The notes under the pieces were generated by a model that was given only the letters and a program-made list of their open reading frames with translations, did no database searches and was not told the DNA's origin. This document shows positions 10,729-40,163 of a stretch of DNA of 64,000 bases, in pieces (position 1 is the stretch's first letter; every line of letters starts with the position of its first letter). The DNA comes from an uncultured Bacillota bacterium. GTDB taxonomy: Bacteria > Bacillota > Clostridia > Christensenellales > UBA1242. The position numbers were made by a program, and so were the translations under genes. The stretch spans positions 95,728 to 159,727 of the forward strand of contig CAOJXO010000001.1 of the NCBI GenBank assembly GCA_948465545.1, in the 5' to 3' direction.

Positions 10729-11085
10729 AAATCGTGTTATAAACGCCCCTACAAAACCACCTATAAAAGATAGGATTAACATTGTCAAGAATAACCATAT
10801 ATATGGAAAGTTTTTTTGTTCCTTTCCTTTTTTATTCTCAGTTTCAACGATCTCATGCCCGTATGGTAAAACGCATAAACAATACACCCCATCATCATCA
10901 TACTTAATCGATATACAATCTTGACGCTCTAAATAGATTAATATATTATCAAGCCCATCACTATCAACCCGATATTTGGACGGCATAGAGGTAATAATGT
11001 CACTCGCTTCTATTATCTTATACGAGCCATTACCGCACTCCTTAATAAGGATTTTTAAAACTAACTTTGATTTAATATCAAGCAT
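10723..11085 (-). CDS. 120-aa protein: N-terminal winged-helix-like domain plus C-terminal TM helix (paralog A)
   Basis: Soluble ~90 aa, a Lys-rich linker, then a hydrophobic helix (IWLFLTMLILSFIGGFVGAFI). It has the same length and layout as 12169..12531. Confidence 0.65.
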   Translation of the reverse strand: MLDIKSKLVLKILIKECGNGSYKIIEASDIITSMPSKYRVDSDGLDNILIYLERQDCISIKYDDDGVYCLCVLPYGHEIVETENKKGKEQKNFPYIWLFLTMLILSFIGGFVGAFITRFL

Positions 11086-11192
11086 ATAAATTTAGTTTGT
11101 CGCTCATAATAACTAAATATTCATTCGACTTTTTTCGACCCTACTATTGACAATAAGGCTGTATTAGGGTAAAATAATTACAAGAGGTAAAG

Positions 11193-12092: not shown

Positions 12093-12168
12093 GGGCTATA
12101 AAGTCCTTATTTTTTGCATAAAAAGCGGTTAGAAGTCAATAATTTAGCAAAATAGGTGTGGAGAAAAA

Positions 12169-12531
12169 ATGTCTAACCGCAAAGAAAAACTTGTTATGAG
12201 TTATCTGTGTAAGGTATGTACTGGAAAAAAGACATATCTAATTTCTCCAAACCAAATTGCAGAAGCAATCTGTAAAAAATGTGTTTTGTCGGTGGCAGAA
12301 ATAGATGAAATCATGGCGTCCCTCGCACTTGAAAACTATATAGACTTTGTGGTATCAGATGGTAAAGACGGCTATTTATATTGCGTTACCTTGAAGAAAA
12401 AAGGGCAAAGTTATCTGCTAGATTCAAAAAAGCAAAAAAAAACATTAGGGATGTTGGTGCTACGCAGTATCTTTCTTGCCACCGTGAGTTTTGTATTTGG
12501 GCTCATCCTCCGTGCGATATTTAAAAGTTAA
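12169..12531 (+). CDS. 120-aa protein: N-terminal winged-helix-like domain plus C-terminal TM helix (paralog B)
   Basis: Same architecture as 10723..11085: the ..DGKDGYLYCVTLKKKG.. core, a KKQKK linker, and the TM helix MLVLRSIFLATVSFVFGLILRAIF. Confidence 0.65.
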   Translation: MSNRKEKLVMSYLCKVCTGKKTYLISPNQIAEAICKKCVLSVAEIDEIMASLALENYIDFVVSDGKDGYLYCVTLKKKGQSYLLDSKKQKKTLGMLVLRSIFLATVSFVFGLILRAIFKS

Positions 12532-12585: not shown

Positions 12586-15500
12586 TCAATATCTGAAAGC
12601 ATCAGGAACTCCTGTTGCAAACATACCTTCTTGAGTAACATGGTCTATAAATTCTGTTGGAAGTGCTTGGAAAGTCTTTCCTATTTGTTTAGTCTGTATA
12701 TTCTTATAAGAACATTCATTGTCTCCATTTGCTAAAACCGCACCAGCAAAACCACAGTAGTTACCCTCTGCACCAAAATATAGTGCTGGTTGTTCAAAAT
12801 TATTTAGTTCTATCATAAGTGCAGCATAAACCGCAGCCGCAACAATATCCATAAATGGCAATGGACCATCAGACAAAGCGATACCTAAATATACAGCTGT
12901 ATAGCCCGCATTTCGCAGACCTACATTTACACCATCCACACATCCAGCAATTGCAACCCAGCCTTGCATACCGCCATTTCCAGCGCTTGCTCTTTGGCCA
13001 TCTTTTCCATTCTTAAGATACTGATTTGAATTTTCAGTTGAATTTTCAGATGTACCATATAGATACGCTTCGCCTTTTTTGCCACCTGCAACAGCAGCTC
13101 CGCCATTTTTACCAGCAATCTTAGTAACGTCAATACCAGAAGTGGTACTGTTAGAAAGAACATCCCATCCTCTAGCACCATTTTTGCCTACAAATGATGA
13201 ACCACCATTTCCAGCAATAACATACTGGCTGTTTGAGCCAACTTGCTTATCCGTTTCAAAACCTATTGCATAAACATTGCTACCTTGTCCGCCTTGTCTG
13301 CCATTGCTAATTTCATTATAACCATTTCCCCCAATAAGCAACCCATAATTAGTTAAATTATCAATAGTTGCTGTTTCATTTTTATAGAAAATTCCTGTTA
13401 TAATGGTTGACTTAAAGTCTCTACCTGTAGAAGTTATACCATTTATAGCTACAAAGTTTCGAACATTATTTAAAGCACCTTCATTAAAACCAACAAAGCC
13501 ACTTGCTATATATTGATCATATTTTCTAAATTCAGCATTACGAACATTTCCATATGTTGACACATTATGAATGGTTGCCTTATTATAATTAGAAATTATT
13601 GAAGTTGCATAATATCTAGTATTTCCGCCAACCATCTCCTTAACCTCTTCAACATTGCAAGCATTTAATTGCCCTACAACGCTTAAGTCTTTCATAAATG
13701 CCCCATCTGTTGTCGAATCAAACAATGAAGATTGGTCTGAATGATAAGATATAACATAATCATTACCACTTAACCTTCCACTAAACAGAGCATATGAAAC
13801 TTTTCCTAAGTACATATTTCTTGTCAAGATTATACCTTCATAAGAAATCGAATCTCCACTTGGCAATATTGGCATAGCTATTGCATTGTCATTCTCTTGA
13901 CTAGCTATAAATGCACTAATCTCTCCAGTCATGGTGTTTGTTAATAACAACTTATCCTCACCATTAGGTTTATAGTTAAATGTTAAACTGTTAGAGGCAG
14001 AATCATAATTATAGAAAGTTGTTAGATCATCTACATCTACAACTTCATCTTGTAAGTTTGTAAAAGTCAAATCTGACTTGTCATAAACAAGAGTTTGATT
14101 TACTTTATTTAACTCTGCAAGATTAGAATTTATAGACAATTCTTTTGCATTAAACTTAAAGTTGGACTCAAGAGTTAATGATAAATCAATATTATCAGGA
14201 CTATCCAGATAAATTATCTTAGATGTATTTTCACCATTTCGTAAATAAACAATATCTAATCCACTGAGAACAAAATCTTCTTTTGTGAAATGAAGAACGA
14301 CAGGGGGTGTTTCTTCAGGTACTTTATCAGTATAATCCCCTAGATCAATATTATTTTGTTGTTTGGTTATATCAATACTACCATTTGAATAATTTGCCTT
14401 TATTGCTTCCTCAATACTATTATATGTATTTGAACTTCCATATACCGTCCACTTTCCTGTATCTCTATTATACGATGCAAGTTGATACTCTTTAGTGTGA
14501 GTAATGTTGTTAGGATGCTTGTTACCATCTTCATCAATATGAGGGTTATCAGACTGTTCAACCCAAGTGTTTGTATAAGTCCATGTTTCAATATTACCAT
14601 CTAATGTCCAAATATATTGTTCAAACATTTTTTCAACAAATTGCGTTACAGAAGCCAACTTTTCCTCTGTCGTTTTGTCTTTAAGCTCTTTTGAGGCAAG
14701 GTGCAATTCGATTGCTTTCATTATATAGTCATCAATAGTTTTACAGTCTGCATAAGGCTTGTTACCATTTTCATCTACTTGTTCTCTAATTTCTTCCATT
14801 GTATATACAAACTTATATTGAGTAATAGATTTTAAAGTTGTAACCCCATTCGCATTCAAATTATAGTTATAAATGAAACTTGGAGCCATTACATCATACA
14901 TTTTTCCATCTATATTAACGGAGTATTTTTTACCACCAGTAATATTAAATGTCATATCATATGCCGATTCAAAATAAGGTGCAACATTATTCTTTTCATC
15001 ATCTAAACTCATATCAACTTCAAAATGTGTATGATAGATGTTTGATTGAATAGAAAAGTCACTATCTACACTAAATGTTAATGTATTAGTTGCATTAGGC
15101 TGCAATTCAACCTCTGCATTACCAGCAACAAGTGAAAGACCTGAAAATTCAGTTTTCATATATCCACTACTATCTTTATTGTTGGTTATTGTAACATTCA
15201 AATTGTCTGTTGAATAGTTGACATTATAATTTGAATTAAATTTGAATGTGCCATAGTAAACTATAATTCCATTTGCAGATTTACTATTTACTTTACCTAA
15301 TGCATAAGTCATATTTAAAGTATGAATCTTAGACTGACTATTATCAGTAACATCAAACTCAACATCATTTTCCTCAAAAGCAAGGTCAACAAAGTTGTAT
15401 GTGATATTTCCACTCAAAATTCCATTGCTAAATTGTTTGTCATATACTTTATCAACAATAATTTGAGGAAGTACAATTTCTTTTAATTGATAGAAATAAT

Positions 15501-18500
15501 CAACTTCAATAGGAGCATTCTTTTCAAAGTCAAGTGAAGTAACAGTGACTTTATTATCTTCAATAGAAACCTGTAAGTTTCCTAATGTTGCAAACGCTGC
15601 AGCATTGTAACTAACAACTGGGGAATCTCCAATGTAGAACAATGCTTTGTCCCAAGATGAAGCATCTGGAAGAGTGAAACTTGCCGTATTTGAATATGCA
15701 GAAATATTATAATTTAATATTGAATTTATATCATCTGCACTAACATTTTCAAAACTCCACACTCCATCAGCAAATGTTGAAGTATAAGAATCAATTATTA
15801 AATCGTTAACCTTGGTCCAATTTGCCCCATCAAATACAACAAGTTTATTGTCATCTTTATCGGTCACTGTTGCAGTATATCCAGTAGAAGCAAATTGCCC
15901 TTGTATACTTATAGAGTCATAAGTTAATGTAAGAGTATTTAAATAATTTTCAATCTCAGATTGAATATCATCATCTGCATAAACGTCTGATACAATAATT
16001 AAAGTTTCCCCATTTGATGTAATAGTCATATTTATACCATTGATATCAAAGTTTTCAATCTCACTTGACCATACACCAGCTTTAAACACTGCAATTTTCC
16101 CAAGTTTCATATCGGTATTTCCAGACACATTAATTTCAAAAGATGTAATTCTGTCTGTAATATTTTCCTCATCAAACTCTGTCTTTATAATAGGCGCAGT
16201 GATATTATTTACAGTATCTAAAATGCTATAAGTAAAGTCAATAGGGACTCTTGAAGCAACAATATTTCCATTACCACCAGCCGTAAAACTGCTGTTAAAT
16301 TTTTCTGAATTAGAGATGTTTTTGTTACCAGTATAAGAATCACTAACCTTACCTGCACTAGACTTAGGTGCATCTACTGTAAATGTAGACTCAATAGTTA
16401 ATCCATAGTGAATTGTTATTGACTTTCCTGCAAGCATTTCTGGAAGAAGAGTGCTTGTGTTAACCGTATTCAAAACATTGCCATCTGAATTATATAATTT
16501 GAGATTCTTATATAATACTAGGCTCTTATTGCCGTACACAAAGTATAATTCCTTTGTTGTACCATTTGCTTGGTAGGTCGTATAATATGCATTAATAAAC
16601 TCCTCATCGCTATCATTCAATTTTGTTTGATAACCGAAAGCTGAACTATTATCAAAAATAGTTTCAATTAATGCTGTGTACGTATTATCAGAAATATCAA
16701 TTTCAATTCTTCCATCTTCTTCATAATAAGAATACTTATAATTAGTTAAATCTATAGTATATGTTTCATCTAATGAATAACTAATTGAAAGTTTTTTATC
16801 TGCCCAGTTGTTTATTTCTTCTGTTGCATAGATTGAAAGATCAAACACAACTTTTGCATTGCTACCAGAGCCAATTTTATTCCATCCAGTTCCAATAACC
16901 TTAACAATTTTTTCACTATCATCTTTATAATCGAAATTAAAGTTATTATATGAATAATCTCCTTTATCAAACAAGTCTATTATTGTAGGATCTGATGTTG
17001 TATAAGTTGTTGTGTAAATAAGAGCGGAGTTCATAAGATTATAAAGATCTGATCCAGCCTCATTTGCCAAATAATAGTATTTATTATTTATTAAAATGTT
17101 GGTATTTTTATTGTTAGATTTAGTTTCGGATAATACCTTGTTCTTTATATTATTAACATCACCATTATCAGTTGATTTCTTATTTTCATAAAAATTATAC
17201 TTATCAGCTACATAACTGCGATAAGTAGGCGTCTGAGAATCACTTGTCCACGAGTAGTAATCCTCTAAGTCCTTACTATATTTAGTTGTTGAAGCTTCTT
17301 TTATACTTACTCTATGTAAAAGTTTAATATATAAACTTGTAGGGAAACCAAATTCATCACGAGAGGTAATAACAAAGTGATTGTTATCATCCTTTTCCCC
17401 GCCTGACACTTCTTTAAAATAGGATTCATATGAAAATTGATAGTAACGCAACCAACCATCAGTAAAAGTATTAGAATTGGCAGGATATCCCGATATATCC
17501 ATAGTATACTTAGTACCACTAGTAATATCGCCTTTAATCGCACAACCATTCATAACGATTTCCTCGTTTGTATTGTAGTTTGTGCCAGCAATACCTTCAC
17601 TTCCATTATATCCTACACCATAAGCATATACATTTCTAAAAGATTCGGTATAAATCGTGAATGTACGGATTTTTTCATTAGCTGTTTTATTTGTCCTAAT
17701 CTTAAACTCTGAGTTTGTTGCAATAGCCTCAACTGAAGCTTCGTTGAGTGAGTTTGAAACAGAACTACCACCACTATAACCAACAATTCCGCCTGCATAT
17801 TGGGCTGTTGTACATTGTTTATTGCCCGCTTTAACAAGCCCTGAATTGTAGCAATAATCAATTGTAGAATTGTCACTTCTACCAGCAATTCCGCCCGCAT
17901 AGTTGCTTGCACTTGCACTGGTAATTACATATCCGCTTGTTACAGATGAAGTGTTATAGCAATATTCAACATAACTAGAGTTGTATAAATACCCAACAAT
18001 TCCACCTGTGTAAATACTACTTCTTGTACCTGTATTTGTAGTATTAATTGGACCATTATTTGAAGAATGCTTGATTGTTGTATTTTCAGCATAACCAACT
18101 AATCCACCCACATATCTCTTATTTGCATCTACTTTAAGATTACTCATAACAGACGCAATAGTAGAGTTTGTTGCTGTTCCTGTCACACCGCCATATTGAC
18201 CTGCATTATTAGCTTTATCAATAGTTACAATACCGCTTAAAGTTACATTTGATATGATTGTGTTTGTTATTGTTTCGGCAATAACACCTGTATTGCTAGA
18301 TTTATCTCTTATGCCTGTTATAGTAACATCTAAGACATCAACATTTCTCACAAAAGAATTTGTCAACACTTGGAAAAGTCCAGTACCATTGAAATTGTAA
18401 AGTCTGTGTCCTTGTCCGTCTAAATCAAGTGATGCCGTTGACTTAAAATTCTTAATTGTATTTGTTGAATCAAAGTAATTGAAATCAAAGTCATTTCTGA

Positions 18501-21500
18501 TAATCACTTTCTTGTTTTCAGTAATCCCATCATTAACATTTGGCAAATAACTATTCCATACGCCAGCGTTAGGAACAATGTAATATGCCCCCATTACATC
18601 AACAGGACTATTACCCCAAATCTCACTGCCAGTAAGGCGATTATATTCGTATCTTTCTATACCCTTAGTATCATCAGACAAATCAGTATCTTTATCCCCT
18701 CTTGATGCATAAGAACTATACTTCAAATAGTTAAACTGTCTTGTAGGATAACTATAGTTGAACTTGTCGTCTTGAGCCCAGTTGCCTGCATTAAACTTTT
18801 GTTTAATACCTGCCGTAGTTGTTGAACCTATACCATTTGCATTCTTATCATTATAAGTATCTGTAAGTTTTGCTCCATCAAATACCGTTCTATGGCTAGA
18901 GTCAGGTTCTGTATTTGCAGAAGTATGATCGTGCCAGTTAAGATTTGTTGCAGAATAACTATGCCTTATTTCAACTTCGGTTGAAGTATGTTCTCCTCTT
19001 CCTTGTATGAAACCATCGATATGAGTGTCAATATATGACTCTACAATACCAACTGCATATGTATAAGTAACTAAAACATTATTTATATTTTTATTGTTTA
19101 CTTTATTAACATTTGCTATTGCAGAAGCCTGACCGTAGAGAATGCTTCCGCCGTCTTTATATTGACCTGCACGGTAGATGATATGAATGTCTGACACTGA
19201 CTCGGTAATTAAACCATTTGCTATACTACCAACAAGTCCGCCAAGACTGATTGCGGTGTTTCCACCAACACTCATATTTCCAGATACACCGACAGCGTAT
19301 ATAATTCCGCTTTCCATGTAACTAGCCACACCACCGATTGACATTCTTTCTGTTTTGCCCGCTTTTACATTATCGTTATCAATATCAAGCACAATATTCA
19401 AGCCTGAAACAAAGGATTGTCCTTTGATATATTCAATAGGGCTTGCATTTTTGTTTGTATAGTTAATGGTATATCCATCACCTATAATAGCAACATTATC
19501 AAGAGTATTTGTAATTGATTCCATTGATACGGCTTGAGCGTTATCAGCAGAGAAATAATAATATCTCATACCATGTACCTTTTCAAGTTGATCAATTTCT
19601 TCAGTGGCGATCGCACCTGTGAATGATTTAGGGTTGAGTTTTGAGCCCTCGCCAGTTAAAGAAGTAACATTTGACACCCTTGTAAGCATAAATTCTGCAA
19701 GAGCATTTTTCTTTTCAGTAATTCCATCAAAGTACTCATGTCCAGTATATCCACCACCTGTAATACCCTTGTTTGTATCATAAGGGGTCATATACCCAAC
19801 GTCATAAGCATTATTGTCCGTAGTAAGAGTAACAGCATGACTATAGAAATTTCCTGCAGTTTCAGAAATTCCTTGAATATTTCCAAATACAGCATTAATC
19901 TTATCACCGTCATTAGGCCTTTGATCGTTATATGTTGTCATTATATAGTTTTCTTGAATTGGATTTTGAAGTCCAGAAACGTCTAAGCCTCTTCCAATAA
20001 GCCCACCATAATAAACTTGACCATGTTTAGAGAATGTTGTTTCAGTAGTGCTTACAGAATCTATTTTTTCATCTTTATACAAGAAGAAAACATCTCCGAA
20101 TGAGTAGTTGTTTGAAATTTCAACACGTCCTGCTTTGGCATTTGTTCCGCCCATATGTCCAGCATCTGCAAAAGTACCAACAAGGCCACCAATATCAAAT
20201 CCAATATTTTCTGCATTATAAATTTTAATCGCACCACCAAAAGCGGTATCTTTAATATAAATATTTTGACTTTCATCAAGACCAGTAATTCTTCCAACAA
20301 TTCCACCTATACTTGCTTTATGTGAAGTGTAGATCTGTCCAACGAAAGACATATCTGCATAAGAAAGTCCATCATTAACAATGTTTGCAGTTGCACCATT
20401 AGTAAGGTAAATATCTCCAACTAAACCGCCCACATATGCCTGAGTATTTTTATCTCCAAATCCCGCATTTACATCAAGCACACTGCCAACTCTTATAATA
20501 CCTTTGATTGTAAGATCTTTTTCGCTTCTACCAACAAGTCCGCCAACATAGGCATTTTTTTCTGCTCTAACTGATATCGCCTTATAAGGATTGTTGTATC
20601 TAAGAATTTCTTCATCACTTGTTATTGCTAAATTTCCAGTAGTACGTCCAACAAGTCCGCCAACATAGGCATTCTCATTAACTTCAAATGCGTTAAATGC
20701 AAATGTGTTGCCGAGATTGTCGATATAGTTTTTCATAATATCCGCAGAATTATGATATGCAGAAGTAAGTCTTCCACTTACATTTGTAGATTTAAATACT
20801 TCAAAGTTTGTAACAACATTTGAAATTTCAGGTGTGCCATCTGAAGCCATTTGTCCCACAAGTCCACCCAAATAAACATCGTTATTTTTATCACTTGAAG
20901 AATATATTCTTACATTAAATGTCTTAGTTGGAACACTTTCAGTTTTACCTGCAATATTTATTCCAGAACCTTTATACGCACCAAATAATCCACCAGCGTA
21001 AACAATGCTTTGTCCTGTAAAAGTTGATGTATTTCCAGATAATGAAAGGCTGATATTTGTGACTGTATCAATATCCGCAAATGTAACAGTATCAATATTG
21101 CTTGCAAGTCCCGCATAACCACCAATGTAAATATTATCGTGATTATAATTTACATTGATTGTTTCCGAAACATTGTTAAGTTGAGTAATACCTTTCCAGT
21201 CATTACCTTGAATTTGTGTATAGGTATTGCCCACTTTACCAATTTGAATATTAAGTTTTGTAGGAGTTAAGTCGTTGCCATTATCATCTTTACCGCTCTC
21301 CTTTAAAACTTCTCCAAAATAAGCACCTACATAAACATTGTTATTAGAAGTGTTTGAATTATTTATAAGGTTACCAGAAGCATCTGTGTAATTATAAATA
21401 TTTACGTTTTGAATATTCATAATTCTATTTTCGCTGTTTTGCGTTGCCTTTCCAGCAATAAGTCCTACCCTTGTCGCATCAGTACTCAAGAACACCTGAC

Positions 21501-24500: not shown

Positions 24501-27500
24501 GAGATGCAGAAAAGCAGTTTTCAAGAGTGCCAGTGTTTTCATAAACAAATCCTGAAACAAGGTATGCTTGATTTTCATTTGAAGTATTTGAAATTAAAAT
24601 GTTTGAATATGCATCTTGGATTTTACCATCATTTTGATATACGAAACCTGCAATCTTGCCAAGGCTTGAACTAAGGCTTGAACCTTGTCTGCAGAATACA
24701 TCTTTAGGTTTATCTTCTTTAACACCTTCAACATAAGATGTTAAAATCTGACTGTTGTTGTTTGCAACAAAACCAGCAGTAATGCTTCTTGTGCTTGCTG
24801 TTTGGTTTTGCATGCCAAAGTTTTTAACAAAACTTGAAGCGATAGTTCCTGCATTTTCAAGAACAAAGCCTGCTATATTTCCCTGAGCGATTATGTTGAA
24901 TTTTTCAAGATAGGTCTTATCAAGGAAGTAACCGATTGTTTGTCCTTGTGAGTCAGTATAATTTTCTCCGATTGTGTATACATCTGAGCCACCTACACGA
25001 CTGTTTGTAATTGAGCCATTGTTTGTGATTACAAAGCCTGCTACATTTGACACTGCTGGATCTGACATGTATTCAGGTTGGGTTACACCCTCGCCTCTTA
25101 CATATTTAACAACAATACCAGTATCGCCATTTATAACTGCACCTGTAACCCCATTTTTCTGGAAGGAAACAACTTCGCAGTTGGTAATAATACCATTGTT
25201 TGTAATTGCAAGACCTGCAATATTTATAGATGAGTAGTTAGGGTTTGCAACATTGACGGTAATCTGTCCACCATTGTAAACATTCACCCTAATATTTTTA
25301 AGAGTAGTTGTGCTTGCAACATTATTAAATAATGCAAAATTTAACGATGCAGTATCTTCAGGATTTGGATTAAACCAATCTATATATATAGTATAACCAT
25401 TTCCATCAAGACTTGCGATTGCATTTGTATCAATAGGAGTATAGTTTCTAAGCACAATGTCATTCATTAAGATATAGTTTTGGGCGTCACCCTCTGCCAT
25501 ATCCATGAAATCATCTTCGCTGTAAACAAGAAGTGGAGTATCCTCATCTGAATAAACCTTAACAAGAACATTAAAGTAATAGTAATAGTCATTGTAAGTT
25601 TCACCCACCTGAACCGTGGTTTGAAGTCTAAGAGAAATAGGTGCGTTGTCTGTGGTTGGACGTAAACCTTTAACAAAAAGAATATTATCTCTTTCATTAT
25701 ATGTCCATTCTAAATAGCCACCAACCGAACTATACTCTCTACCATTGTATACAGACATCCAGTTGTTATTTACATTTGAATAATAATCAAGGCGAGTATT
25801 CACAGTTTTTGGTTGTGATGGAATAGGATTGCCATTGTTATCACGAGCATAGTTGATATAATAACCCGCATCTTCATCTTTGAAATAAGAATTCCTTTCA
25901 AACGAATTGATATTCGCTTTAATAGCATTTACATTGTCAACACTTTCTTGATCGCTTGGGTCATAAGTGTAGTTTTCTGGAAGAATAGGATATTTAAATT
26001 GAAGAGGCTCAGAAAGTCCTAAATAAGTGACAAAGGTGTCATTCTCAGCATTTGCAATAGAAATATTATCTGCGTCAACCTTAAAGTCAACAAGGTTTAC
26101 CTCAGCATATGCTGTTTTACGCTCTTCATAACCATTGCTGGTTCGTGACACTGTCACTGAAATTCTAAACATTCCATTTGCGTCATCTTTAAGTTTTGCA
26201 TTAATAGACGCTGAGATTCTTGATGTATAAACTACCACGCCAGCATTGCTGTCATCAATCTCCCAGTTAGTATTAAATAATGTAATACCGCTTACTACAT
26301 TTTCAACAATCGTAGAATTGATATCCACATTTTGGTCGGCAGGAACAACAATCTTCACCTCCGCCGTTTGCCCCTTTGCAAGTATGGCTGTTGAATAACC
26401 ATCTACAAGAACCTGAGGCTCTGCAAGATAACTTATTGTAAGGTTGTAATTTGCATAGGTTATCTCTTCGCCATTTGAATCGTAGAATCTGATAGTAAAT
26501 TTTAAAGCAACATCATCTTTTTGCTGAATTGCATTGTTTGCCCAAATCTTGAAGTAAAGGTCATAGTTCTCTTTTGCTTCACCACTAGGTATAACGCTTA
26601 TTCCGTTTGTAATAAGGTCTACTTGCGACTTAGTGTCTTCATAATATCTACCATAGATATCTTGTGTCATGAAGTTTATTGTTGCAGCGCCTATCATAGA
26701 TGCACCACTATATTCCATTGTGAAATGATGATAGTATGCGTATTGAGGGTTAACATTTACTTTAAGAAGACTACTGCTTCCAGGTGCAAGGATTCCACTG
26801 GTTGCATTACTTACCTCATATTTGTTTACATAAACATCTCTATCCTCGCCATAGCCACCTATTTTTTCATAGAGCATATTGTTTACTCTATAATTTGAAA
26901 TTGCAATGTTAGTAAATTCCTGTCTTGAAACAATCAGGTCAAAATCCTCTTCTACCACTTGATATAATGAAGAAAGTGAAATGTTATAGGTTTGAGTTTC
27001 AGAAATCTCTGCTCTATAATCTCTAACAACGCTTAAATATACCGTAAAGTTTAATGTATAAAGTCCGTCAACAGCCACCGCTGATTCGTTGCCTGCATCA
27101 GGAACAATCTGTATTAAAATTTGTTCCTGCTTGTCACGGCTAGCAGTCCATGTGCCATTATCGTTTACAACACTAAGGTCAACACTTCCACCAGCCAACA
27201 TTAATTTTACATTAGGTGTAAGGACATCGTCTTTTGCACCAGAGATAAGTTGTACCCTAACTACGCCCATTGAAGAAGGTGTAATTGAAACCTCGTTATT
27301 TGTTGCACCAATTGAAATTGCACCGTCGAATAAGTTTAAACTATAATTCTTTGCAAACTGAGTGCGAATCACATCACTTATTACATCTGACACCTGTTCG
27401 TCAAGGCCTAAAAGTCTAACATAGGTGTTAATCTCGGCATTTTCACTATCCTTATTTGTAACAAGGTTTAATATAGTTTTATTAGTTCCAGTAGTTTCAA

Positions 27501-30500
27501 CAATAATTGTATTTGAAGATGGAACATGGTTAAGTTCATACTCATTAGGAATAAGGTCAAAGACATTTCCACGATTTCCTAGATACATGCTTGCATGTTC
27601 GAAATTATAAGAAACCGTAAGCGACCTTCCCCTTTGAAGATTGATTACACTTCCGTTTGTAATATTCTCACTGCCACCTTGATATGCCCATGACGCATTT
27701 AAATCCGAAAGTGCATTAATTACATAAACGGTAATCGCTTTATTTAATGAATAGTCTTGTTTGCTTGAAATTGTCAGTGTCACCACGCCAGTATCTTTAA
27801 CAACAATGCTATTTGCATTTATATCTACAATACTTGTATCCGCACAGCCAACAACAAGTCTGTCTGCATCTTTGCTGTCAAGAAGTGAAGCAAGTGAAAT
27901 TGTGTTAAGACTTTCAAGAGCCATCTTTTCATTGTCTGTCATAAAAGCATAATCTCTTGAATCCACAGCATATCTGAACAAGATTGCCTCGCTAGTGCCA
28001 ACCTTTAATGCTTTATAAACATTATTACCTTCTTTAAGCACATCCACAACTTCATAGCCACTTACATTTGTAAGAGGTTCTGCTTGATAAACATTTTTAA
28101 GGTGAGCCATTCCGCCATTTACATAAGCCATAAAACTTGAAGAGTTTGGATTATTTGGTTTAGCCCAAATGTCAAGGCTAAGTGCAGCCTCGTTATCATT
28201 CTTCATACCATTGATATAGAAGTCTGAAACATAACCTGAATAAGAGTAGTAGGAAATATAAGTGTTATCTAATTGACTAAACACCCCACTTGATGTTGTG
28301 AAATATCTGTCTTCAATATTAACAACTGCAAACGACTTTGTTACATTTACACTGCTGTTTGCAAATCCCACAAACGCACTTCTGTGTGAACCTACAAGGT
28401 TAACGCCAGAATTTTCTGTCATAGTATAATCGTAGATATATGACTCTGTAATATTACCGCCGTCAAGATATCCAACAAAACCACCTACATATTCACCAGT
28501 AATTGTGTTTGCACCAGTTTCAAAATTGTAAATTTCAAAACTAGAACCTTTAATATTACCACCTTCATTCTTACCAGCAAATCCACCTACGTAACTTCCA
28601 GTTGTGCCAGCAACAATTTTCAATCCTAATACTTTTACATTTGATAAAGAAGCAAAGTTTTCGCCTACAACACCACCTACATAAGTTTTGGTTGTTCCGT
28701 CAAGTGTGCTAGGTTTATATACGCTACGACTTATACCAGTATCAGAATCTGTTTCAATCTCTGCATTCACGTCAATTATAACATTTTCAATAGTACCATA
28801 GTTTGAGTTTGCTACGAAACCACCACCTGCCACATTACCCGTAAAGGTAATATCACTAATAGTACCATGGTTTGTATTAACAAAACTTTCTCCGTTGATT
28901 GTTATTGTGATATTTTCATTATCCCCCCTAATTCCACCTGTAAGGTTTTCAATGCTAGTCCATGAGTCAAGGGTGATATTATTCATTACTCTGTAATATT
29001 TGTTTGATTCAAATTTTGTTTTAAAATCTTCTTCAGAATAGATGTGATACTCATAATCTCTAGAGCCATCAGCAACCATAACTGAAATTCTAATAAGAAT
29101 ATTTGAGAATGGAATTTCTTCATTTTTATTATTAATAAAGTAAGCGTTTTCATAAAGGTAATCAAACCATGTGGTTGTACCCTCTTTGATTTTTCCTAAA
29201 TTATCAAGAGATTCATTTTGGCTTATAGGATTGCCAAGTCCATCAAGGTCTGCAAGTTTATCAAAGTAAAAAATTCTACCTTGATTGATTGCGTCCTGTG
29301 GAAGAACATATATATATCCCGCTTTGCCTTCGCTTGCTGTTAACACCACTTGTCCATTATTATCAACATTTTTTACCTCTACAAAATTATCAGGGGTTGG
29401 ATTTCCCGCTTTGTCAGTAATGTGATAATAAAGTTCTTTTGTTTTGGCATTTGATGGAGCAGAAGAAATAACTAAGATAGATGGTTCAGTATCATTAACC
29501 TCAAAATAGATTCCGCCCTCTGCTTCATTTTCCCAAACAAGGCTTTCTATTCTATCGGCATTCACAATTTTAACATTAACAACGCCGTTAGGATTAACGT
29601 TTACTTCCTGCTTATCGGTGTTATAGTATCTTATTGTAAGCACATCATCAAAGTTTTGAACACCTTTAGTTGAAAGTCCATTGATAACAAAACTTAAATA
29701 AGTATCTGTTAAAACGATGTTAGAGATGTTGTAATATCCCTCAACCCAGGTGACACTATCACCAAGCATTGTACCAGCACCACCCATTCTGTTTGAATAG
29801 AATGTAAAATAGTCAAGGCTTGAATAAGTTAAAGGCACTTCGCTAAGAGTAATTCTTACTTCCGCCTTTGTTTCTTCACGATCCTTTGTAGAGACAGAAT
29901 CATAAGCATAAAGGTTTACAAAGGTTGGATTAACAGAAAATTCGGTTGGAGCAACATAGTTTTCAATCAAAACAATTCTTACAAATGTAACTTCATTGCC
30001 AAGTGTATCAAGTCCAGTAAAACTAACAACAAGATAGGTGTATCCCGTACGGTTGGTTGTTGTAAGCGACGTGGTTGTCACGTTAACAAAACTACTACTT
30101 GCCTTCCTTGCTGGATTGTTATAAATATCATTTGCAGTTTGACCTAAGAATACATCAAGGTCAGCACTTTCATCATAGTCAAGGAATGAGAATCTAATAC
30201 GTGCATCCGCATAATTTCCATTCGCACGGTTTTTAATAAATGTAAGTGGAACGCTAGACCCAGTCCTGACAAGCAAACTTGAAACGCTTGCAGAAGGGGT
30301 TGTTGCATTCTCCAAAGCGCCATCATTTAAGATATAAAGATTATTATTAAATTGTGCTTTTGTAACTGCGGAACTGCTTTCATAATCTATCCTAGCATCA
30401 GTTAAAGGAAGGAAAAGTTTAACATCAAAGGCGTCACTTGAAAGCCCATTTTTGTGTCTGATTCTATAAGAGCAATCTTTGGTAAGTCCAATACTGTTTG

Positions 30501-32220
30501 CGTCCACCTTGAATTTTACTCTAAATGTAACACTTCCGTCAGCATCTGTGGTAAATCCAATAGGCTCGATTGATGAAGCGGTAAACCCTTCACCTATAGT
30601 TTCCACCATTAAACCTTCAATAGAAGTTTGACCTCTTAAAACAAAAATCTTTTCTTCTTCTGAGGTTGTCATTGTTGAAAGACGTAATGAAGCATCAAAC
30701 CCCTCATACTCTTCAAACTTTATGTTGCTTGCTGACTTATATAAGTTAAGGGTGTATACACTGCTTACATTCGGATTATCAATAGACCTAAGAGTTAATT
30801 TAACATTTGAAATTGAACTATTGACAAACTCCTCGCTGGCAAGAATGTAAAGTTCGGTAGATGAAGTAAGTGTGCTTTCTATGCTATCAAATATAAGGTC
30901 ACTATTTGAATTTGTCCCCATAAAAATCTGGCCGTAACTACCGCTCATATTTCGATAGTAGAACTGCAAAGTGTCCTTATTAACATTGTTATTTTGAAGA
31001 TCTCTAGAATTACAGTTGTTGTAATCTACACTAAGGCTATATTTGCCAGTAGCATTATGTACCCCCGTTGGGGTTAATTCCACCCTATATTTTGCACCAT
31101 AAGGAGATGCATAAGTGGTGTATATTGATTGTACTGAAGAAGCCGCATTGCTGTTTTCCTCAGTATAGAGATTAATATCTCTTATTTTCTCATAACAATT
31201 AATGTTAAAACTGTTTGACTTTATTGCATAATCATATCCCTCATAGCCAACATTGAAGTATGAAGTAAATGCACCATTCACATTTGTTTTTAAGGCTTTA
31301 ACCTCATAAATTAAATAACCCTCTTCTTCACTCTGGCTCTGTTTTAAAATTGAGATGTTGGCAACATCCTCCTTGCCATTAAATAAAACAACTGGTTGTG
31401 GCAAAATAGGCTCGTTTCCATTATATCTAAAACGTATATAAGCGGTGTACGCACTGTCGGTAGAAATATTAGGTACAATAGAAATTGTTTCGCTATCTAA
31501 TGGAGTAAAGTCCTGACTTAGGCTGTAAGAATACTCCATTTTAATTGAACTTGCAGATAATGCGTTAAGCACAAACAATTTAACTGGTGTTGATTCGCCA
31601 GACTCTGCTGTCGCGATAAGAGTGATATAACCTTCATTATCTGCAACAAACCCTTCTGTAAGGGTTAAGGTATTTCCAACAAGGGTTGCATTGTTTGCAT
31701 CAACACCTTGAGCGAAAGACCATGTGATGTTTCTTCTTGCAGTGGCTGGATAAACAGTAATCAACTCCTTGTCGTCAAGGGTAACAGTGCCACCACGAAT
31801 AGCATACATCTTGCTTTGCCCTGTTTGAGAATCATCTTTTTGAGTCATGGATTTAACTTCACTGTAAACAGTAACAGAAACAATAGTCTTAACGCTACTG
31901 TCATAATCGCTTGTAATTATAATATCAGCATCACCCTCAGCAATAGCATTGATTGTAATATCATTTTTCCCAGTGATAGAGTTATACACAACAGAGGCTG
32001 AGGCAATGTTTTCATAGGAAGAAGAAGCCGTAACCCTTCCCTCGTCAATTCCGTTGACTGTGGCAGAGATTAAAGCCTTATGTTCTGAATCGTCATTTAA
32101 ACAAATATCAACATGCTGCTTGTCAAGGTCGATAGTAACAGTGGGGCTGCCACAAGCAGAAAGAATACTTCCGCCAAGAAGTATAATTGTACTTAAAAGT
32201 CCTACCCAAAACTTTTTCAT
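12586..32220 (-). CDS. giant surface lipoprotein (~6544 aa) with Big_2-like Ig domains and many GLUG-type/parallel-beta repeats
   Basis: A single uninterrupted 19.6-kb ORF. The likely start is MKKFW at 32220, preceded by AGGAGGAAAA. It has a signal peptide and lipobox (LLGGSILSAC). An N-terminal Big_2-like segment reads ITINAIAEGDADIIITS. There are dozens of x-Y-[VA]-G-G-[LIFV]-[VAI]-G-x repeats, including the CYN[ST][GS] context typical of GLUG motifs. I saw no LPXTG. Confidence 0.9.
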   Translation of the reverse strand: MKKFWVGLLSTIILLGGSILSACGSPTVTIDLDKQHVDICLNDDSEHKALISATVNGIDEGRVTASSSYENIASASVVYNSITGKNDITINAIAEGDADIIITSDYDSSVKTIVSVTVYSEVKSMTQKDDSQTGQSKMYAIRGGTVTLDDKELITVYPATARRNITWSFAQGVDANNATLVGNTLTLTEGFVADNEGYITLIATAESGESTPVKLFVLNALSASSIKMEYSYSLSQDFTPLDSETISIVPNISTDSAYTAYIRFRYNGNEPILPQPVVLFNGKEDVANISILKQSQSEEEGYLIYEVKALKTNVNGAFTSYFNVGYEGYDYAIKSNSFNINCYEKIRDINLYTEENSNAASSVQSIYTTYASPYGAKYRVELTPTGVHNATGKYSLSVDYNNCNSRDLQNNNVNKDTLQFYYRNMSGSYGQIFMGTNSNSDLIFDSIESTLTSSTELYILASEEFVNSSISNVKLTLRSIDNPNVSSVYTLNLYKSASNIKFEEYEGFDASLRLSTMTTSEEEKIFVLRGQTSIEGLMVETIGEGFTASSIEPIGFTTDADGSVTFRVKFKVDANSIGLTKDCSYRIRHKNGLSSDAFDVKLFLPLTDARIDYESSSAVTKAQFNNNLYILNDGALENATTPSASVSSLLVRTGSSVPLTFIKNRANGNYADARIRFSFLDYDESADLDVFLGQTANDIYNNPARKASSSFVNVTTTSLTTTNRTGYTYLVVSFTGLDTLGNEVTFVRIVLIENYVAPTEFSVNPTFVNLYAYDSVSTKDREETKAEVRITLSEVPLTYSSLDYFTFYSNRMGGAGTMLGDSVTWVEGYYNISNIVLTDTYLSFVINGLSTKGVQNFDDVLTIRYYNTDKQEVNVNPNGVVNVKIVNADRIESLVWENEAEGGIYFEVNDTEPSILVISSAPSNAKTKELYYHITDKAGNPTPDNFVEVKNVDNNGQVVLTASEGKAGYIYVLPQDAINQGRIFYFDKLADLDGLGNPISQNESLDNLGKIKEGTTTWFDYLYENAYFINNKNEEIPFSNILIRISVMVADGSRDYEYHIYSEEDFKTKFESNKYYRVMNNITLDSWTSIENLTGGIRGDNENITITINGESFVNTNHGTISDITFTGNVAGGGFVANSNYGTIENVIIDVNAEIETDSDTGISRSVYKPSTLDGTTKTYVGGVVGENFASLSNVKVLGLKIVAGTTGSYVGGFAGKNEGGNIKGSSFEIYNFETGANTITGEYVGGFVGYLDGGNITESYIYDYTMTENSGVNLVGSHRSAFVGFANSSVNVTKSFAVVNIEDRYFTTSSGVFSQLDNTYISYYSYSGYVSDFYINGMKNDNEAALSLDIWAKPNNPNSSSFMAYVNGGMAHLKNVYQAEPLTNVSGYEVVDVLKEGNNVYKALKVGTSEAILFRYAVDSRDYAFMTDNEKMALESLNTISLASLLDSKDADRLVVGCADTSIVDINANSIVVKDTGVVTLTISSKQDYSLNKAITVYVINALSDLNASWAYQGGSENITNGSVINLQRGRSLTVSYNFEHASMYLGNRGNVFDLIPNEYELNHVPSSNTIIVETTGTNKTILNLVTNKDSENAEINTYVRLLGLDEQVSDVISDVIRTQFAKNYSLNLFDGAISIGATNNEVSITPSSMGVVRVQLISGAKDDVLTPNVKLMLAGGSVDLSVVNDNGTWTASRDKQEQILIQIVPDAGNESAVAVDGLYTLNFTVYLSVVRDYRAEISETQTYNISLSSLYQVVEEDFDLIVSRQEFTNIAISNYRVNNMLYEKIGGYGEDRDVYVNKYEVSNATSGILAPGSSSLLKVNVNPQYAYYHHFTMEYSGASMIGAATINFMTQDIYGRYYEDTKSQVDLITNGISVIPSGEAKENYDLYFKIWANNAIQQKDDVALKFTIRFYDSNGEEITYANYNLTISYLAEPQVLVDGYSTAILAKGQTAEVKIVVPADQNVDINSTIVENVVSGITLFNTNWEIDDSNAGVVVYTSRISASINAKLKDDANGMFRISVTVSRTSNGYEERKTAYAEVNLVDFKVDADNISIANAENDTFVTYLGLSEPLQFKYPILPENYTYDPSDQESVDNVNAIKANINSFERNSYFKDEDAGYYINYARDNNGNPIPSQPKTVNTRLDYYSNVNNNWMSVYNGREYSSVGGYLEWTYNERDNILFVKGLRPTTDNAPISLRLQTTVQVGETYNDYYYYFNVLVKVYSDEDTPLLVYSEDDFMDMAEGDAQNYILMNDIVLRNYTPIDTNAIASLDGNGYTIYIDWFNPNPEDTASLNFALFNNVASTTTLKNIRVNVYNGGQITVNVANPNYSSINIAGLAITNNGIITNCEVVSFQKNGVTGAVINGDTGIVVKYVRGEGVTQPEYMSDPAVSNVAGFVITNNGSITNSRVGGSDVYTIGENYTDSQGQTIGYFLDKTYLEKFNIIAQGNIAGFVLENAGTIASSFVKNFGMQNQTASTRSITAGFVANNNSQILTSYVEGVKEDKPKDVFCRQGSSLSSSLGKIAGFVYQNDGKIQDAYSNILISNTSNENQAYLVSGFVYENTGTLENCFSASQITSLVYSQMNFSGVDEKGNLLATGSYINCYYYNAQSLGNDDSTEESYNTRAVQLSELDDETYFYGFAFNSSENSINGVWSLIASEGILTLVEPNKIAYSSRYYLAGEEEGQYFLPYSTLYNSERGLINANYGSENNPIIIRNAQEFVNVTGKSTSTYISSYFTKTRINGNYRIVSDLDFSDLVVSGGDNEEEGTIDLPSINKAFTGNLFGNGFTIANLSITSSEDMIAFGLFASIEGASIINLNITVNQVVNNLANFVGSIAGYAKNSNLVNIQITNNKDCVVEGLNFVGGVVGMMFGDSKVKNVNVIDPNVIADRYNEVGIESQEGATSNIGMTRNVATFSAQTAFELRMLLIQQIGDIFLSEANVNMLNNVVAFISNMSYAGGAFGYVDIFTEQESMVADYQHKTEMQSSDYELSKVRVQGAINVQGQVVGGVVGFAGVHTDIKDTGAIFTDPASEPVSHLVATKFYAGGIVGQGYGNYIQLFSEYDETTQNTIENNLLTYYSGSNNAERGSTTIFSTEGIDKDYSQIYVGGLVGYAGSGQLTVSYSKLNVVDMLARYAGGVIGYVNTTNSGVYYISDGTDNIVTKYYMNEVYATGDVRAKNAAGGIIGSVSRGSNIILESVNAVNFLSTYDYAEEVQYRAEDFYMSKVSTDLDENEQPIEYNIYSFDKINVYAIIGNYENQNDFNFLVVTKAADDDEAAAAGTKRYVTVGAVRQYVSSINTLDTIKLFAYPNEPYRVGDINVNEEGNLHNIMAIPSVSTYPSAETGYDDTYGVFLGSDVWSMNNWYHDSDSLYPRIKFSIVERPYIYLDAYDASIRAALTRMQNSDIEVRVRGLTAAGSETKAHIDIAGFLQRNDITFKDGIENFRGRLIGWQVGQQVSIQGYPQEWPALLLDRPLFNGTSAGFRMSNVSVKFRPYKDPVLGEITNKTIFSSDSDYKGAFSNSNMMLAVLDNVQFEFTHNVYFYNSNNDSEVGLLAPTITNTSISNFNIFINLPESGQVFLSTDATRVGLIAGKATQNSENRIMNIQNVNIYNYTDASGNLINNSNTSNNNVYVGAYFGEVLKESGKDDNGNDLTPTKLNIQIGKVGNTYTQIQGNDWKGITQLNNVSETINVNYNHDNIYIGGYAGLASNIDTVTFADIDTVTNISLSLSGNTSTFTGQSIVYAGGLFGAYKGSGINIAGKTESVPTKTFNVRIYSSSDKNNDVYLGGLVGQMASDGTPEISNVVTNFEVFKSTNVSGRLTSAYHNSADIMKNYIDNLGNTFAFNAFEVNENAYVGGLVGRTTGNLAITSDEEILRYNNPYKAISVRAEKNAYVGGLVGRSEKDLTIKGIIRVGSVLDVNAGFGDKNTQAYVGGLVGDIYLTNGATANIVNDGLSYADMSFVGQIYTSHKASIGGIVGRITGLDESQNIYIKDTAFGGAIKIYNAENIGFDIGGLVGTFADAGHMGGTNAKAGRVEISNNYSFGDVFFLYKDEKIDSVSTTETTFSKHGQVYYGGLIGRGLDVSGLQNPIQENYIMTTYNDQRPNDGDKINAVFGNIQGISETAGNFYSHAVTLTTDNNAYDVGYMTPYDTNKGITGGGYTGHEYFDGITEKKNALAEFMLTRVSNVTSLTGEGSKLNPKSFTGAIATEEIDQLEKVHGMRYYYFSADNAQAVSMESITNTLDNVAIIGDGYTINYTNKNASPIEYIKGQSFVSGLNIVLDIDNDNVKAGKTERMSIGGVASYMESGIIYAVGVSGNMSVGGNTAISLGGLVGSIANGLITESVSDIHIIYRAGQYKDGGSILYGQASAIANVNKVNNKNINNVLVTYTYAVGIVESYIDTHIDGFIQGRGEHTSTEVEIRHSYSATNLNWHDHTSANTEPDSSHRTVFDGAKLTDTYNDKNANGIGSTTTAGIKQKFNAGNWAQDDKFNYSYPTRQFNYLKYSSYASRGDKDTDLSDDTKGIERYEYNRLTGSEIWGNSPVDVMGAYYIVPNAGVWNSYLPNVNDGITENKKVIIRNDFDFNYFDSTNTIKNFKSTASLDLDGQGHRLYNFNGTGLFQVLTNSFVRNVDVLDVTITGIRDKSSNTGVIAETITNTIISNVTLSGIVTIDKANNAGQYGGVTGTATNSTIASVMSNLKVDANKRYVGGLVGYAENTTIKHSSNNGPINTTNTGTRSSIYTGGIVGYLYNSSYVEYCYNTSSVTSGYVITSASASNYAGGIAGRSDNSTIDYCYNSGLVKAGNKQCTTAQYAGGIVGYSGGSSVSNSLNEASVEAIATNSEFKIRTNKTANEKIRTFTIYTESFRNVYAYGVGYNGSEGIAGTNYNTNEEIVMNGCAIKGDITSGTKYTMDISGYPANSNTFTDGWLRYYQFSYESYFKEVSGGEKDDNNHFVITSRDEFGFPTSLYIKLLHRVSIKEASTTKYSKDLEDYYSWTSDSQTPTYRSYVADKYNFYENKKSTDNGDVNNIKNKVLSETKSNNKNTNILINNKYYYLANEAGSDLYNLMNSALIYTTTYTTSDPTIIDLFDKGDYSYNNFNFDYKDDSEKIVKVIGTGWNKIGSGSNAKVVFDLSIYATEEINNWADKKLSISYSLDETYTIDLTNYKYSYYEEDGRIEIDISDNTYTALIETIFDNSSAFGYQTKLNDSDEEFINAYYTTYQANGTTKELYFVYGNKSLVLYKNLKLYNSDGNVLNTVNTSTLLPEMLAGKSITIHYGLTIESTFTVDAPKSSAGKVSDSYTGNKNISNSEKFNSSFTAGGNGNIVASRVPIDFTYSILDTVNNITAPIIKTEFDEENITDRITSFEINVSGNTDMKLGKIAVFKAGVWSSEIENFDINGINMTITSNGETLIIVSDVYADDDIQSEIENYLNTLTLTYDSISIQGQFASTGYTATVTDKDDNKLVVFDGANWTKVNDLIIDSYTSTFADGVWSFENVSADDINSILNYNISAYSNTASFTLPDASSWDKALFYIGDSPVVSYNAAAFATLGNLQVSIEDNKVTVTSLDFEKNAPIEVDYFYQLKEIVLPQIIVDKVYDKQFSNGILSGNITYNFVDLAFEENDVEFDVTDNSQSKIHTLNMTYALGKVNSKSANGIIVYYGTFKFNSNYNVNYSTDNLNVTITNNKDSSGYMKTEFSGLSLVAGNAEVELQPNATNTLTFSVDSDFSIQSNIYHTHFEVDMSLDDEKNNVAPYFESAYDMTFNITGGKKYSVNIDGKMYDVMAPSFIYNYNLNANGVTTLKSITQYKFVYTMEEIREQVDENGNKPYADCKTIDDYIMKAIELHLASKELKDKTTEEKLASVTQFVEKMFEQYIWTLDGNIETWTYTNTWVEQSDNPHIDEDGNKHPNNITHTKEYQLASYNRDTGKWTVYGSSNTYNSIEEAIKANYSNGSIDITKQQNNIDLGDYTDKVPEETPPVVLHFTKEDFVLSGLDIVYLRNGENTSKIIYLDSPDNIDLSLTLESNFKFNAKELSINSNLAELNKVNQTLVYDKSDLTFTNLQDEVVDVDDLTTFYNYDSASNSLTFNYKPNGEDKLLLTNTMTGEISAFIASQENDNAIAMPILPSGDSISYEGIILTRNMYLGKVSYALFSGRLSGNDYVISYHSDQSSLFDSTTDGAFMKDLSVVGQLNACNVEEVKEMVGGNTRYYATSIISNYNKATIHNVSTYGNVRNAEFRKYDQYIASGFVGFNEGALNNVRNFVAINGITSTGRDFKSTIITGIFYKNETATIDNLTNYGLLIGGNGYNEISNGRQGGQGSNVYAIGFETDKQVGSNSQYVIAGNGGSSFVGKNGARGWDVLSNSTTSGIDVTKIAGKNGGAAVAGGKKGEAYLYGTSENSTENSNQYLKNGKDGQRASAGNGGMQGWVAIAGCVDGVNVGLRNAGYTAVYLGIALSDGPLPFMDIVAAAVYAALMIELNNFEQPALYFGAEGNYCGFAGAVLANGDNECSYKNIQTKQIGKTFQALPTEFIDHVTQEGMFATGVPDAFRY

Positions 32221-32394
32221 TTTTCCTCCTTGTTTAATATTTGCAATTTGACAATTCTTAATCAATTTAACTGCCAATATTCTACAAAATTAAACCTTCT
32301 GTAAAAAGTATAAAATTCAACAAGAAAAATGTCAAATAAATAATTATTAAATTAAAATAAATAATTATATATTATTCGTCCTCTTGCCTTAATT

Positions 32395-32424
32395 TCAGTT
32401 TAATAAATCCCCCCCCCGCGTCAA
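32395..32424 (-). promoter_or_regulatory. candidate promoter of the giant gene with a G9 homopolymer in the spacer
   Basis: On the - strand: TTGACG (32424-32419), c, G9 (32417-32409), atttat, then TAAACT. That gives a 16-nt spacer made mostly of the G tract. The tract is ~190 nt upstream of the start codon. Confidence 0.4.
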
Positions 32425-36504: not shown

Positions 36505-36507
36505 TCG

Positions 36508-36535: not shown

Positions 36536-36563
36536 ATGATTTTATAACTAAATTTAGCACAAA

Positions 36564-40128: not shown

Positions 40129-40163
40129 TTTTACCTCCGTGTATTTTAAAATTTAGGTGCAAC

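Follow-up and report, generated by a model that had tools for sequence, protein, structure and literature searches.

A giant, non-repetitive predicted lipoprotein with GLUG beta-helix modules and a mosaic C-terminal half, encoded in the genome of an uncultured Bacillota bacterium

Giant surface adhesins such as Ebh, the serine-rich repeat proteins (SRRPs) of L. reuteri (5NXK) and the mucus-binding proteins are highly repetitive and mostly held by an LPXTG signal or by their C-terminus. In Staphylococcus aureus, a membrane segment at the C-terminus of Ebh fixes the protein in place. A further point of reference is provided by contingency loci and variable surface lipoproteins, with homopolymer-controlled surface antigens in Mycoplasma, Neisseria and Campylobacter. 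Bacterial proteins of more than 5000 amino acids (aa) are rare, comprising mainly non-ribosomal peptide synthetases and polyketide synthases or proteins of surface attachment and recognition, and genes of giant size are often confined to particular strains (PMC11573180). Proteins with the GLUG motif have been proposed as adhesins in gut archaea and other gut microbes (PMC9723798), and in the pneumococcal IgA1 protease a beta-helix of the same kind forms a non-catalytic N-terminal gating domain (PMC7695701). The present work concerns a single 19.6-kb gene that encodes a predicted lipoprotein of 6544 aa. It lies in a 64,000-nucleotide stretch of contig CAOJXO010000001.1 (positions 95,728 to 159,727; assembly GCA_948465545.1) of an uncultured Bacillota bacterium, and this whole stretch is referred to below as the window.

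The product is probably a Sec-exported giant surface fibre or adhesin with an N-terminal lipid anchor, in which beta-helices of the IgA1-protease type stand among lineage-specific domains and whose distal half has been diversified, antigenically or in function, by recombination. Among huge bacterial proteins it falls into the “surface attachment and recognition” class, and its features set it apart from IgA proteases, Big_2 proteins and LPXTG proteins. Like Ebh, the SRRPs and the mucus-binding proteins, it is huge and beta-rich, appears to be Sec-exported and surface-bound, and is a presumed adhesin or fibre; the binding region of the SRRP is also a right-handed beta-helix. In contrast to these proteins, it is non-repetitive and carries a lipobox, and it shares no sequence with them in searches of the Protein Data Bank (PDB). 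A giant adhesin-like surface protein is an unsurprising conclusion, as specialists would anticipate such a product from a surface gene of this size in a Gram-positive bacterium. Its unusual traits are about 4000 residues of non-repetitive orphan sequence, a predicted lipoprotein anchor at such size, and ancient mosaic alleles.

Encoded on the minus strand, the gene is by far the longest open reading frame (ORF) of the window. The original prediction had described an uninterrupted ORF of about 6544 aa between positions 12586 and 32220 without giving its strand, and this frame was borne out. The first in-frame start is a TTG at 32277, from which the frame would count 6563 codons; because an AGGAGG stands 4 nucleotides (nt) before the ATG at 32220 and the product opens there with a signal peptide, the predicted coordinates and the length of 6544 aa are correct. 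Over the same DNA the remaining five frames contain 317–860 stops, and with this base composition a run of 6544 codons would be free of stops by chance with a probability of about 1e-228.

The giant protein is essentially non-repetitive. Tandem Repeats Finder returned no tandem repeats over the 19.6-kb gene, the longest direct DNA repeat inside it is 38 nt with a 74% match, and self-BLAST with 150-aa fragments gave just four weak pairs, every one between GLUG blocks. Being non-repetitive, the gene assembles reliably. The exact 6544-aa sequence is present in a public protein collection, on a 263-kb NCBI contig, and the 90%-identity cluster that holds it has 16 full-length members of 6544–6546 aa from separate assemblies. 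Additional full-length alleles of 6465, 6541 and 6553 aa were found in other samples, and more than 20 independent assemblies contain the gene at full length (6465–6553 aa). One copy, in GCA_948888385.1 (contig CAQTPV010000003.1), lies in two pieces; the break is a frame-shifting run of N, a scaffolding gap and not a mutation. An assembly collapse or chimera, named in the original prediction as the finding that would overturn it, is ruled out by the absence of repeats and by the more than 20 concordant assemblies. Between two alleles the ratio of nonsynonymous to synonymous substitution rates (dN/dS) is 0.31–0.58 in every segment; together with the full-length copies in many assemblies, this supports the earlier proposal that selection keeps the frame intact. 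Real and intact, the gene evolves under purifying selection, and it offers a clean example of a giant protein that is non-repetitive and recurs intact in many samples.

At its N-terminus the protein reads MKKFWVGLLSTIILLGGSILSAC, followed by GSP after the lipobox Cys23, with L-S-A-C at aa 20–23. The features expected of a bacterial lipoprotein, namely a [LVI][ASTVI][GAS]C lipobox, a basic n-region and a hydrophobic h-region, are all found, in agreement with the signal peptide and LSAC lipobox recognised earlier. Other anchoring signatures were likewise correctly described as absent: the LPXTG signal (pattern LP.T[GASN]) does not occur anywhere in the protein, by which a sortase substrate was rejected, and the Pfam scans gave no choline-binding or SLH repeats. 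HEXXH is absent across the whole protein, and no peptidase or other catalytic family was found in Pfam or NCBIfam scans of its full length. Membership of the M26 IgA1 proteases was rejected, there being no HEXXH, no M26 domains and no sequence match to IgA1 proteases beyond the beta-helix.

The modular part of the chain was delineated by profile methods. Pfam and NCBIfam were scanned with two 3500-aa halves, and Pfam also with 720-aa pieces; the gathering threshold of PF07581 is 20.5 bits. The halves gave a sub-threshold Pfam Glug match of 17.1 bits and nothing in NCBIfam. Among the 720-aa pieces, Glug PF07581 passed twice, at 42.9 bits (aa 651–1370) and 45.8 bits (aa 4551–5270), and reached 18.7 bits, under the threshold, in aa 3251–3970. 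The strict motif Y[VA]GG[LIFV][VAI]G occurs 12 times (17 when relaxed), in five clusters, and the CYN[ST][GS] context is found at aa 4754 and 4790 only, so that the motifs on which the original prediction relied are present but their abundance had been overstated. With aa 4540–4870 as the query, the best block, corresponding to the module here called m6 (Table 1), 372 proteins were matched at E <= 1 (best 2e-28). Nearly all of them carry PF07581, and a few, from Ruminococcus or Clostridia, are named “GLUG motif-containing protein”. A hidden Markov model (HMM) of the module, built from 84 of the m6 matches aligned with m6 and with the giant protein itself excluded, recognised seven modules in the giant protein at 12.6–151 bits, whereas 20 composition-preserving shuffles scored at most 3.9 bits. 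Together, these modules span about 2490 aa (38% of the chain). The description of the protein as built from GLUG repeats is thus right as to the presence of GLUG, but the other 62% lacks such repeats.

The fold was modelled for m6, and the remaining six modules were assigned by profile. AlphaFold2, run from the module alignment, gave a beta-solenoid with a predicted local distance difference test (pLDDT) score of 84.5 and a predicted template modelling (TM) score of 0.86. In Foldseek searches of the PDB the top matches of this model were 3N6Z (a Bacteroides ovatus “putative IgA1 protease”), 7UVK (Gemella) and 6XJA/6XJB (S. pneumoniae), with TM-scores of about 0.54–0.57, followed by weaker matches to pectate lyases, tailspikes and the L. 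reuteri SRRP adhesin. The module profile matches the same IgA1-protease chains by sequence, with E-values from 1e-20 to 2e-26. The modules are bona fide GLUG domains, homologous to the right-handed beta-helix of the IgA1-protease N-terminal domain (NTD), and for them the earlier comparison with IgA-protease-like proteins is upheld by both Foldseek and the profile.

The seven modules thus share a domain with the M26 IgA1 metalloproteases (6XJA/6XJB, 7UVK) and with BACOVA_03286 (3N6Z). The giant protein differs from the proteases in lacking the M26 catalytic region, HEXXH, the G5 domain and the LPXTG anchor, and in reiterating the module seven times along a 6544-aa chain, over 38% of its length. 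Module m6 is also shared with GLUG proteins of gut Clostridia and archaea (Ruminococcus bicirculans, Methanimicrococcus). Among the matches listed, however, these proteins have at most 580 aa, their similarity is confined to the module (24–44% identity over 24–90% of m6), and none matches the other 62% of the giant protein.

That remaining 62% comprises aa 24–1046, 1346–2223, 3268–3536, 5031–6138 and 6295–6544, and no Pfam or NCBIfam family passes its threshold there. PDB sequence searches with both halves, the N-terminus and a three-allele profile of aa 2583–6544 found no relative for the non-module regions. No internal repeats were detected in the non-GLUG regions, and an internal Ig-like periodicity was rejected, no pair exceeding 5 bits. 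The Big_2-like Ig domains that the original prediction placed behind the lipobox did not hold up: HMM scans for both proposed families recovered GLUG PF07581 above threshold twice, but Big_2 PF02368 was absent, with no match at E <= 1 in any 720-aa piece, and aa 24–330 had no PDB match. The sole Ig-like hint is Ig_NUP210_15th near aa 1905–1930, at 20 bits against a cut-off of 27 (E 5e-4).

In an exhaustive phmmer search of 1.84 billion representative proteins, the last 1200 aa matched nothing beyond the gene's own lineage. The single match was P0035, an N-truncated version of the same gene from the metagenome-assembled genome (MAG) GCA_948888385.1, with 75% identity overall and 57% over these 1200 aa. 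Patterns from three alleles, searched in 185,579 species-representative genomes, gave one match, a Bacteroidales protein 27% identical over m6, in which GLUG is combined with a GDSL-lipase in a SusC/SusD locus; this match is generic. Two JGI metagenome scans found no relatives. The roughly 4000 residues without detectable relatives are a target for structure prediction and for new extracellular folds.

Strain comparison divides the protein into two parts. The N-terminal half is 98–100% conserved; within the 90% cluster, aa 1–3400 are about 99–100% identical, and the differences concentrate in aa 3400–5000 and 5600–6544. In a MAG whose flanking DNA is 96.9% identical, the N-terminal 1022 aa are 98% identical. 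A mosaic analysis of six alleles showed that the C-terminal half is a mosaic with at least three allele classes (A, B and C) and identity down to 13–36%. Allele L001, with flanking DNA 99% identical, is 92–100% identical to the window copy in aa 3977–4776, falls to 25–33% in aa 4877–5276, returns to 72–95% in an island at aa 5277–5576, and stays at 13–40% from there to the end. P0035 and L036 (full-length, 6553 aa) are 71–98% identical in aa 3877–4876 and 33–61% in the last 800 aa. L040 is almost identical to the window allele, and P0002 (6546 aa), the cluster representative, is an intermediate subtype.

Synonymous divergence (dS) is 0.036 in the shared segment and 1.3–1.6, that is, saturated, in the divergent ones, with dN/dS below 0.6 throughout; on these values, old alleles have been swapped by homologous recombination, as judged from the sequences, and not generated by recent bursts of mutation. 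Flanking genes are 97–99% identical between strains with divergent alleles, and the divergent alleles are collinear along their entire length, retaining m7, the glycine-rich region, the hydrophobic hairpin and the invariant motifs. A conserved N-terminal half with a variable distal half is the pattern we would expect of a stalk and an exposed, selected part if the protein is anchored N-terminally. Such a set of alleles is consistent with selection of a diversifying or balancing kind, exerted by hosts, phages or competitors. With a stalk as conserved as housekeeping genes and at least three ancient alleles of the distal half, the locus marks where selection by such agents acts.

Variation is also present upstream of the gene, where two promoter-like sites, P1 and P2, were recognised as consensus matches. 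The G9 run within the P2 spacer is the window's sole G/C homopolymer with at least 7 residues; over the 64 kb, about 0.13 runs of 8 or more would be expected. The G run was found in all 23 other assemblies covering the region, with a length of 8 or 9. For one strain in one sample series, nine 3.1-kb loci are base-for-base identical except that the run has 8 (seven loci) or 9 (two loci) residues. Across the other assemblies the P2 spacer would accordingly range over 15–18 nt, given the run length and one extra A. The tract resembles a hypermutable contingency tract and could modulate expression of the giant gene, which is offered as a lead and not as a finding. Against a switch stands the stronger promoter-like site, P1, downstream of the G run. 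In common with variable surface lipoproteins and contingency loci, the system has a predicted N-terminal lipid anchor, between-strain variation of the presumably exposed part and a length-variable upstream homopolymer in a promoter-like spacer. It differs in being a single giant gene and not a multigene family, in varying by allelic recombination of old segments and not by repeat expansion, and in that its switch is a candidate. Should the G run indeed toggle expression, this uncultured Firmicute would possess a contingency locus. The same run also lies upstream of the divergent TilS-like gene (32545–33249), and either gene could be affected.

Taken as a surface fibre, the protein would be exported via Sec and lipidated on Cys23 of the lipobox by the Lgt/LspA pathway, and the lipidated cysteine would hold the N-terminal end on the outside of the cytoplasmic membrane. 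Past the predicted anchor lies a long, non-repetitive, beta-rich chain in which the seven GLUG / IgA1-protease-NTD helices alternate with lineage-specific domains of unrecognised fold; fully extended, it might form a fibre of 100–200 nm, a rough guess and not a calculated value. The anchor-proximal aa 1–3400 would serve as the stalk and aa 3400–6544 as the exposed, ligand- or antigen-bearing part, with a putative role in adhesion or as a protective, spacing fibre, and the G8/G9 run might modulate its expression and so allow phase variation. Several points weigh against this reading. The conserved hydrophobic hairpin near the C-terminus could be a second membrane anchor, which would make a free distal tip wrong. 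The fibre geometry is inferred, because 62% of the protein has no recognisable fold, and the G8/G9 difference could be homopolymer noise of short-read assemblies. A monoderm envelope is assumed from the SpoIIE gene and the MobL relaxase described below, and the exhaustive homologue search covered the last 1200 aa.

The model is least certain in the C-terminal region, whose hydrophobic stretch may anchor the chain to the membrane a second time, act as a membrane-inserting element or form the core of a cap. If it were an anchor, the protein would be fixed at both ends in the same membrane, by the N-terminal lipid and the C-terminal hairpin, and would form a giant loop, belt or coat comparable to Ebh. 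This arrangement is unlikely, though several observations speak for it. The stretch lies about 90 residues before the C-terminus, at the same place in the three allele classes, and its Kyte-Doolittle peaks are 1.78–1.88 in every allele despite an identity of about 30%. Constrained function is further indicated by conserved motifs: ASAGNG, QP and P-x-E are invariant across the four aligned alleles (three classes), and DGPLP and LPTE are retained in two of the three classes. An AlphaFold2 model of the C-terminal 695 aa from three alleles draws two helices here, but its pLDDT is 30 and it is untrustworthy. Moreover, the stretch contains charged D, E and R residues and a proline-rich turn, barely passes the classical transmembrane threshold and is followed by a hydrophilic tail of 70–90 aa, and it may simply form the interior of a small, globular cap. 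A more far-reaching proposal goes beyond the double anchor to a new envelope structure: a phase-variable, recombination-shuffled giant fibre or belt of folds largely without relatives, held by the N-terminal lipid and by a novel C-terminal glycine-rich hairpin acting as an anchor or membrane-inserting module, with allele classes for strain-specific recognition of host, phage or kin. This is decidedly unlikely.

Two functional alternatives were weighed against the adhesive fibre. Catalytic modules, or the unassigned regions, might make the protein a surface-bound enzyme complex (polysaccharide lyase or hydrolase, or protease) acting on host mucus or IgA, as in the Foldseek ranking the IgA1 proteases are followed by pectate lyases, polygalacturonases, lyases of fucoidan and alginate and phage tailspike depolymerases, and Bacteroidales fuse the same module to a GDSL lipase within a SusC/SusD locus. 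These matches are weak, however (TM 0.2–0.35, E above 5e-4), and reflect a generic fold; the homologous beta-helix of the IgA1 protease is non-catalytic (PMC7695701), and neither HEXXH nor a catalytic Pfam family occurs in the whole protein, which makes an enzymatic role improbable. Still less should be expected of a polymorphic toxin in the manner of WapA, Rhs or CdiA, in which a delivery stalk carries interchangeable C-terminal effectors for contact-dependent competition or kin recognition; such a role is very improbable. A conserved N-terminal half, a strongly divergent C-terminal 1700 aa between flanks 97–99% identical, and a beta-helix-rich giant architecture like that of filamentous delivery proteins all recall such systems. 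However, the alleles are collinear homologues to their last residues and not unrelated swapped domains, the Pfam scans show no toxin family, and no immunity gene is linked to the alleles: the three small downstream ORFs (120, 299/315 and 120 aa) show conservation of 90% or more between classes A, B and C and are convergent with or opposite to the giant gene, not co-oriented with it. Membership of the WapA/Rhs/CdiA-like toxins was rejected on the collinear alleles and the lack of a linked immunity gene. The features of the gene and its upstream region are collected in Table 1.

Table 1. Positions in the window of the giant gene, its modules and regions, and the sequence signals upstream of it.
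Feature	Coordinates	Strand	Basis or remarks
Coding sequence of the predicted giant lipoprotein, 6544 aa + stop	12586..32220	minus	ORF call; ATG 32220, stop 12586-12588
Signal peptide + lipobox LSAC, aa 1-23, predicted lipidated Cys23	32152..32220	minus	Hydropathy peak 1.91
N-terminal region, aa 24-1046, beta-rich by eye	29083..32151	minus	No Pfam, NCBIfam or PDB match
GLUG beta-helix module m1, aa 1047-1345	28186..29082	minus	Module HMM 41.7 bits; Pfam Glug 42.9 bits
Unassigned region, aa 1346-2223	25552..28185	minus	Sub-threshold Ig_NUP210_15th match only; no internal repeats
GLUG-type module m2, aa 2224-2644, degenerate AGFV variant	24289..25551	minus	HMM 18.2 bits, independent E-value (i-E) 5e-8
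GLUG-type module m3, aa 2703-3267, with insertion	22420..24114	minus	HMM 54.8 + 39.2 bits
GLUG-type module m4, aa 3537-4119	19864..21612	minus	HMM 7.6 + 34.3 bits, weak 1.6-bit start segment; Pfam Glug 18.7 bits (sub-threshold)
GLUG-type module m5, aa 4284-4497	18730..19371	minus	HMM 13.1 bits, i-E 2e-6
GLUG module m6, aa 4564-5030, best-conserved	17131..18531	minus	HMM 151 bits; Pfam Glug 45.8 bits
Unassigned region, aa 5031-6138, highly allele-variable save for conserved island aa ~5300-5600	13807..17130	minus	No family match
GLUG-type module m7, aa 6139-6294	13339..13806	minus	HMM 12.6 bits, i-E 2.5e-6
Glycine-rich C-terminal region, aa 6295-6544, 17% Gly	12589..13338	minus	Conserved motifs among alleles
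Hydrophobic two-helix stretch, aa ~6437-6472	12805..12912	minus	Present in all three allele classes
Allele-variable C-terminal half, aa ~3400-6544	12589..22020	minus	Allele comparisons
Ribosome-binding site AGGAGG	32225..32230	minus	4 nt upstream of ATG
Promoter-like site P1, TTGACA-17-TATACT	32307..32335	minus	11/12 consensus matches; ~87 nt upstream of ATG
Promoter-like site P2, TTGACG-16-TAAACT	32397..32424	minus	Spacer contains G9 run
G9 homopolymer (C9 on + strand), candidate hypermutable switch	32409..32417	minus	189-197 nt upstream of ATG

The gene is chromosomal and lies between uvrA, uvrB, radC and the three small ORFs on one side and the PP-loop (TilS-like) gene, iPGM and tRNA-Ile on the other; the G+C content is 35%. 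No intrinsic terminator was recognised after its stop. The three small ORFs between radC and that stop (10723–12531) belong to no family. Two of them, each of 120 aa (10723–11085, minus strand; 12169–12531, plus strand), look like paralogues by eye and have an apparent C-terminal hydrophobic helix each. The acidic ORF between this pair (11193–12092) has 299 aa in the window and 315 aa in all other strains, the window version having the shorter C-terminus. Because the window contains a SpoIIE gene (54072–56372) and a MobL relaxase matching mainly Bacillota plasmids, the gene content suggests a spore-forming Bacillota host. Beside the SpoIIE gene, at 57081–61283, lie genes for an NAD-dependent sugar epimerase/dehydratase and a 1010-aa family-2 glycosyltransferase, which together suggest a cell-envelope polysaccharide locus.

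An integrated mobile element occupies 36428–50000 and adjoins tRNA-Ile (36428–36504). Its cargo includes a tyrosine integrase (36717–38063), the MobL relaxase (38496–39701), a segment like a diversity-generating retroelement and an AAA/DUF4143 ATPase (48666–49964), and the integrase sequence was found on 109 contigs. A phage or plasmid origin of the element was rejected, as nothing matched in the phage collection and the MobL protein is only about 25% identical to relaxases of Bacillota plasmids. The retroelement-like segment (41334–45678, minus strand), in which no group II intron RNA was found, carries a pair of 109-nt repeats that are 83% identical, one just upstream of the reverse transcriptase gene (repeat 45570–45678; gene 44345–45526) and the other at 43905–44013. 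Every mismatch of the pair has an A in the copy next to the reverse transcriptase and another base in the second copy, the signature of a template and a variable repeat. The variable repeat falls near the 5' end (aa ~83–119) of a 975-aa ORF of BspA-type leucine-rich repeats (41334–44261), an unusual position.

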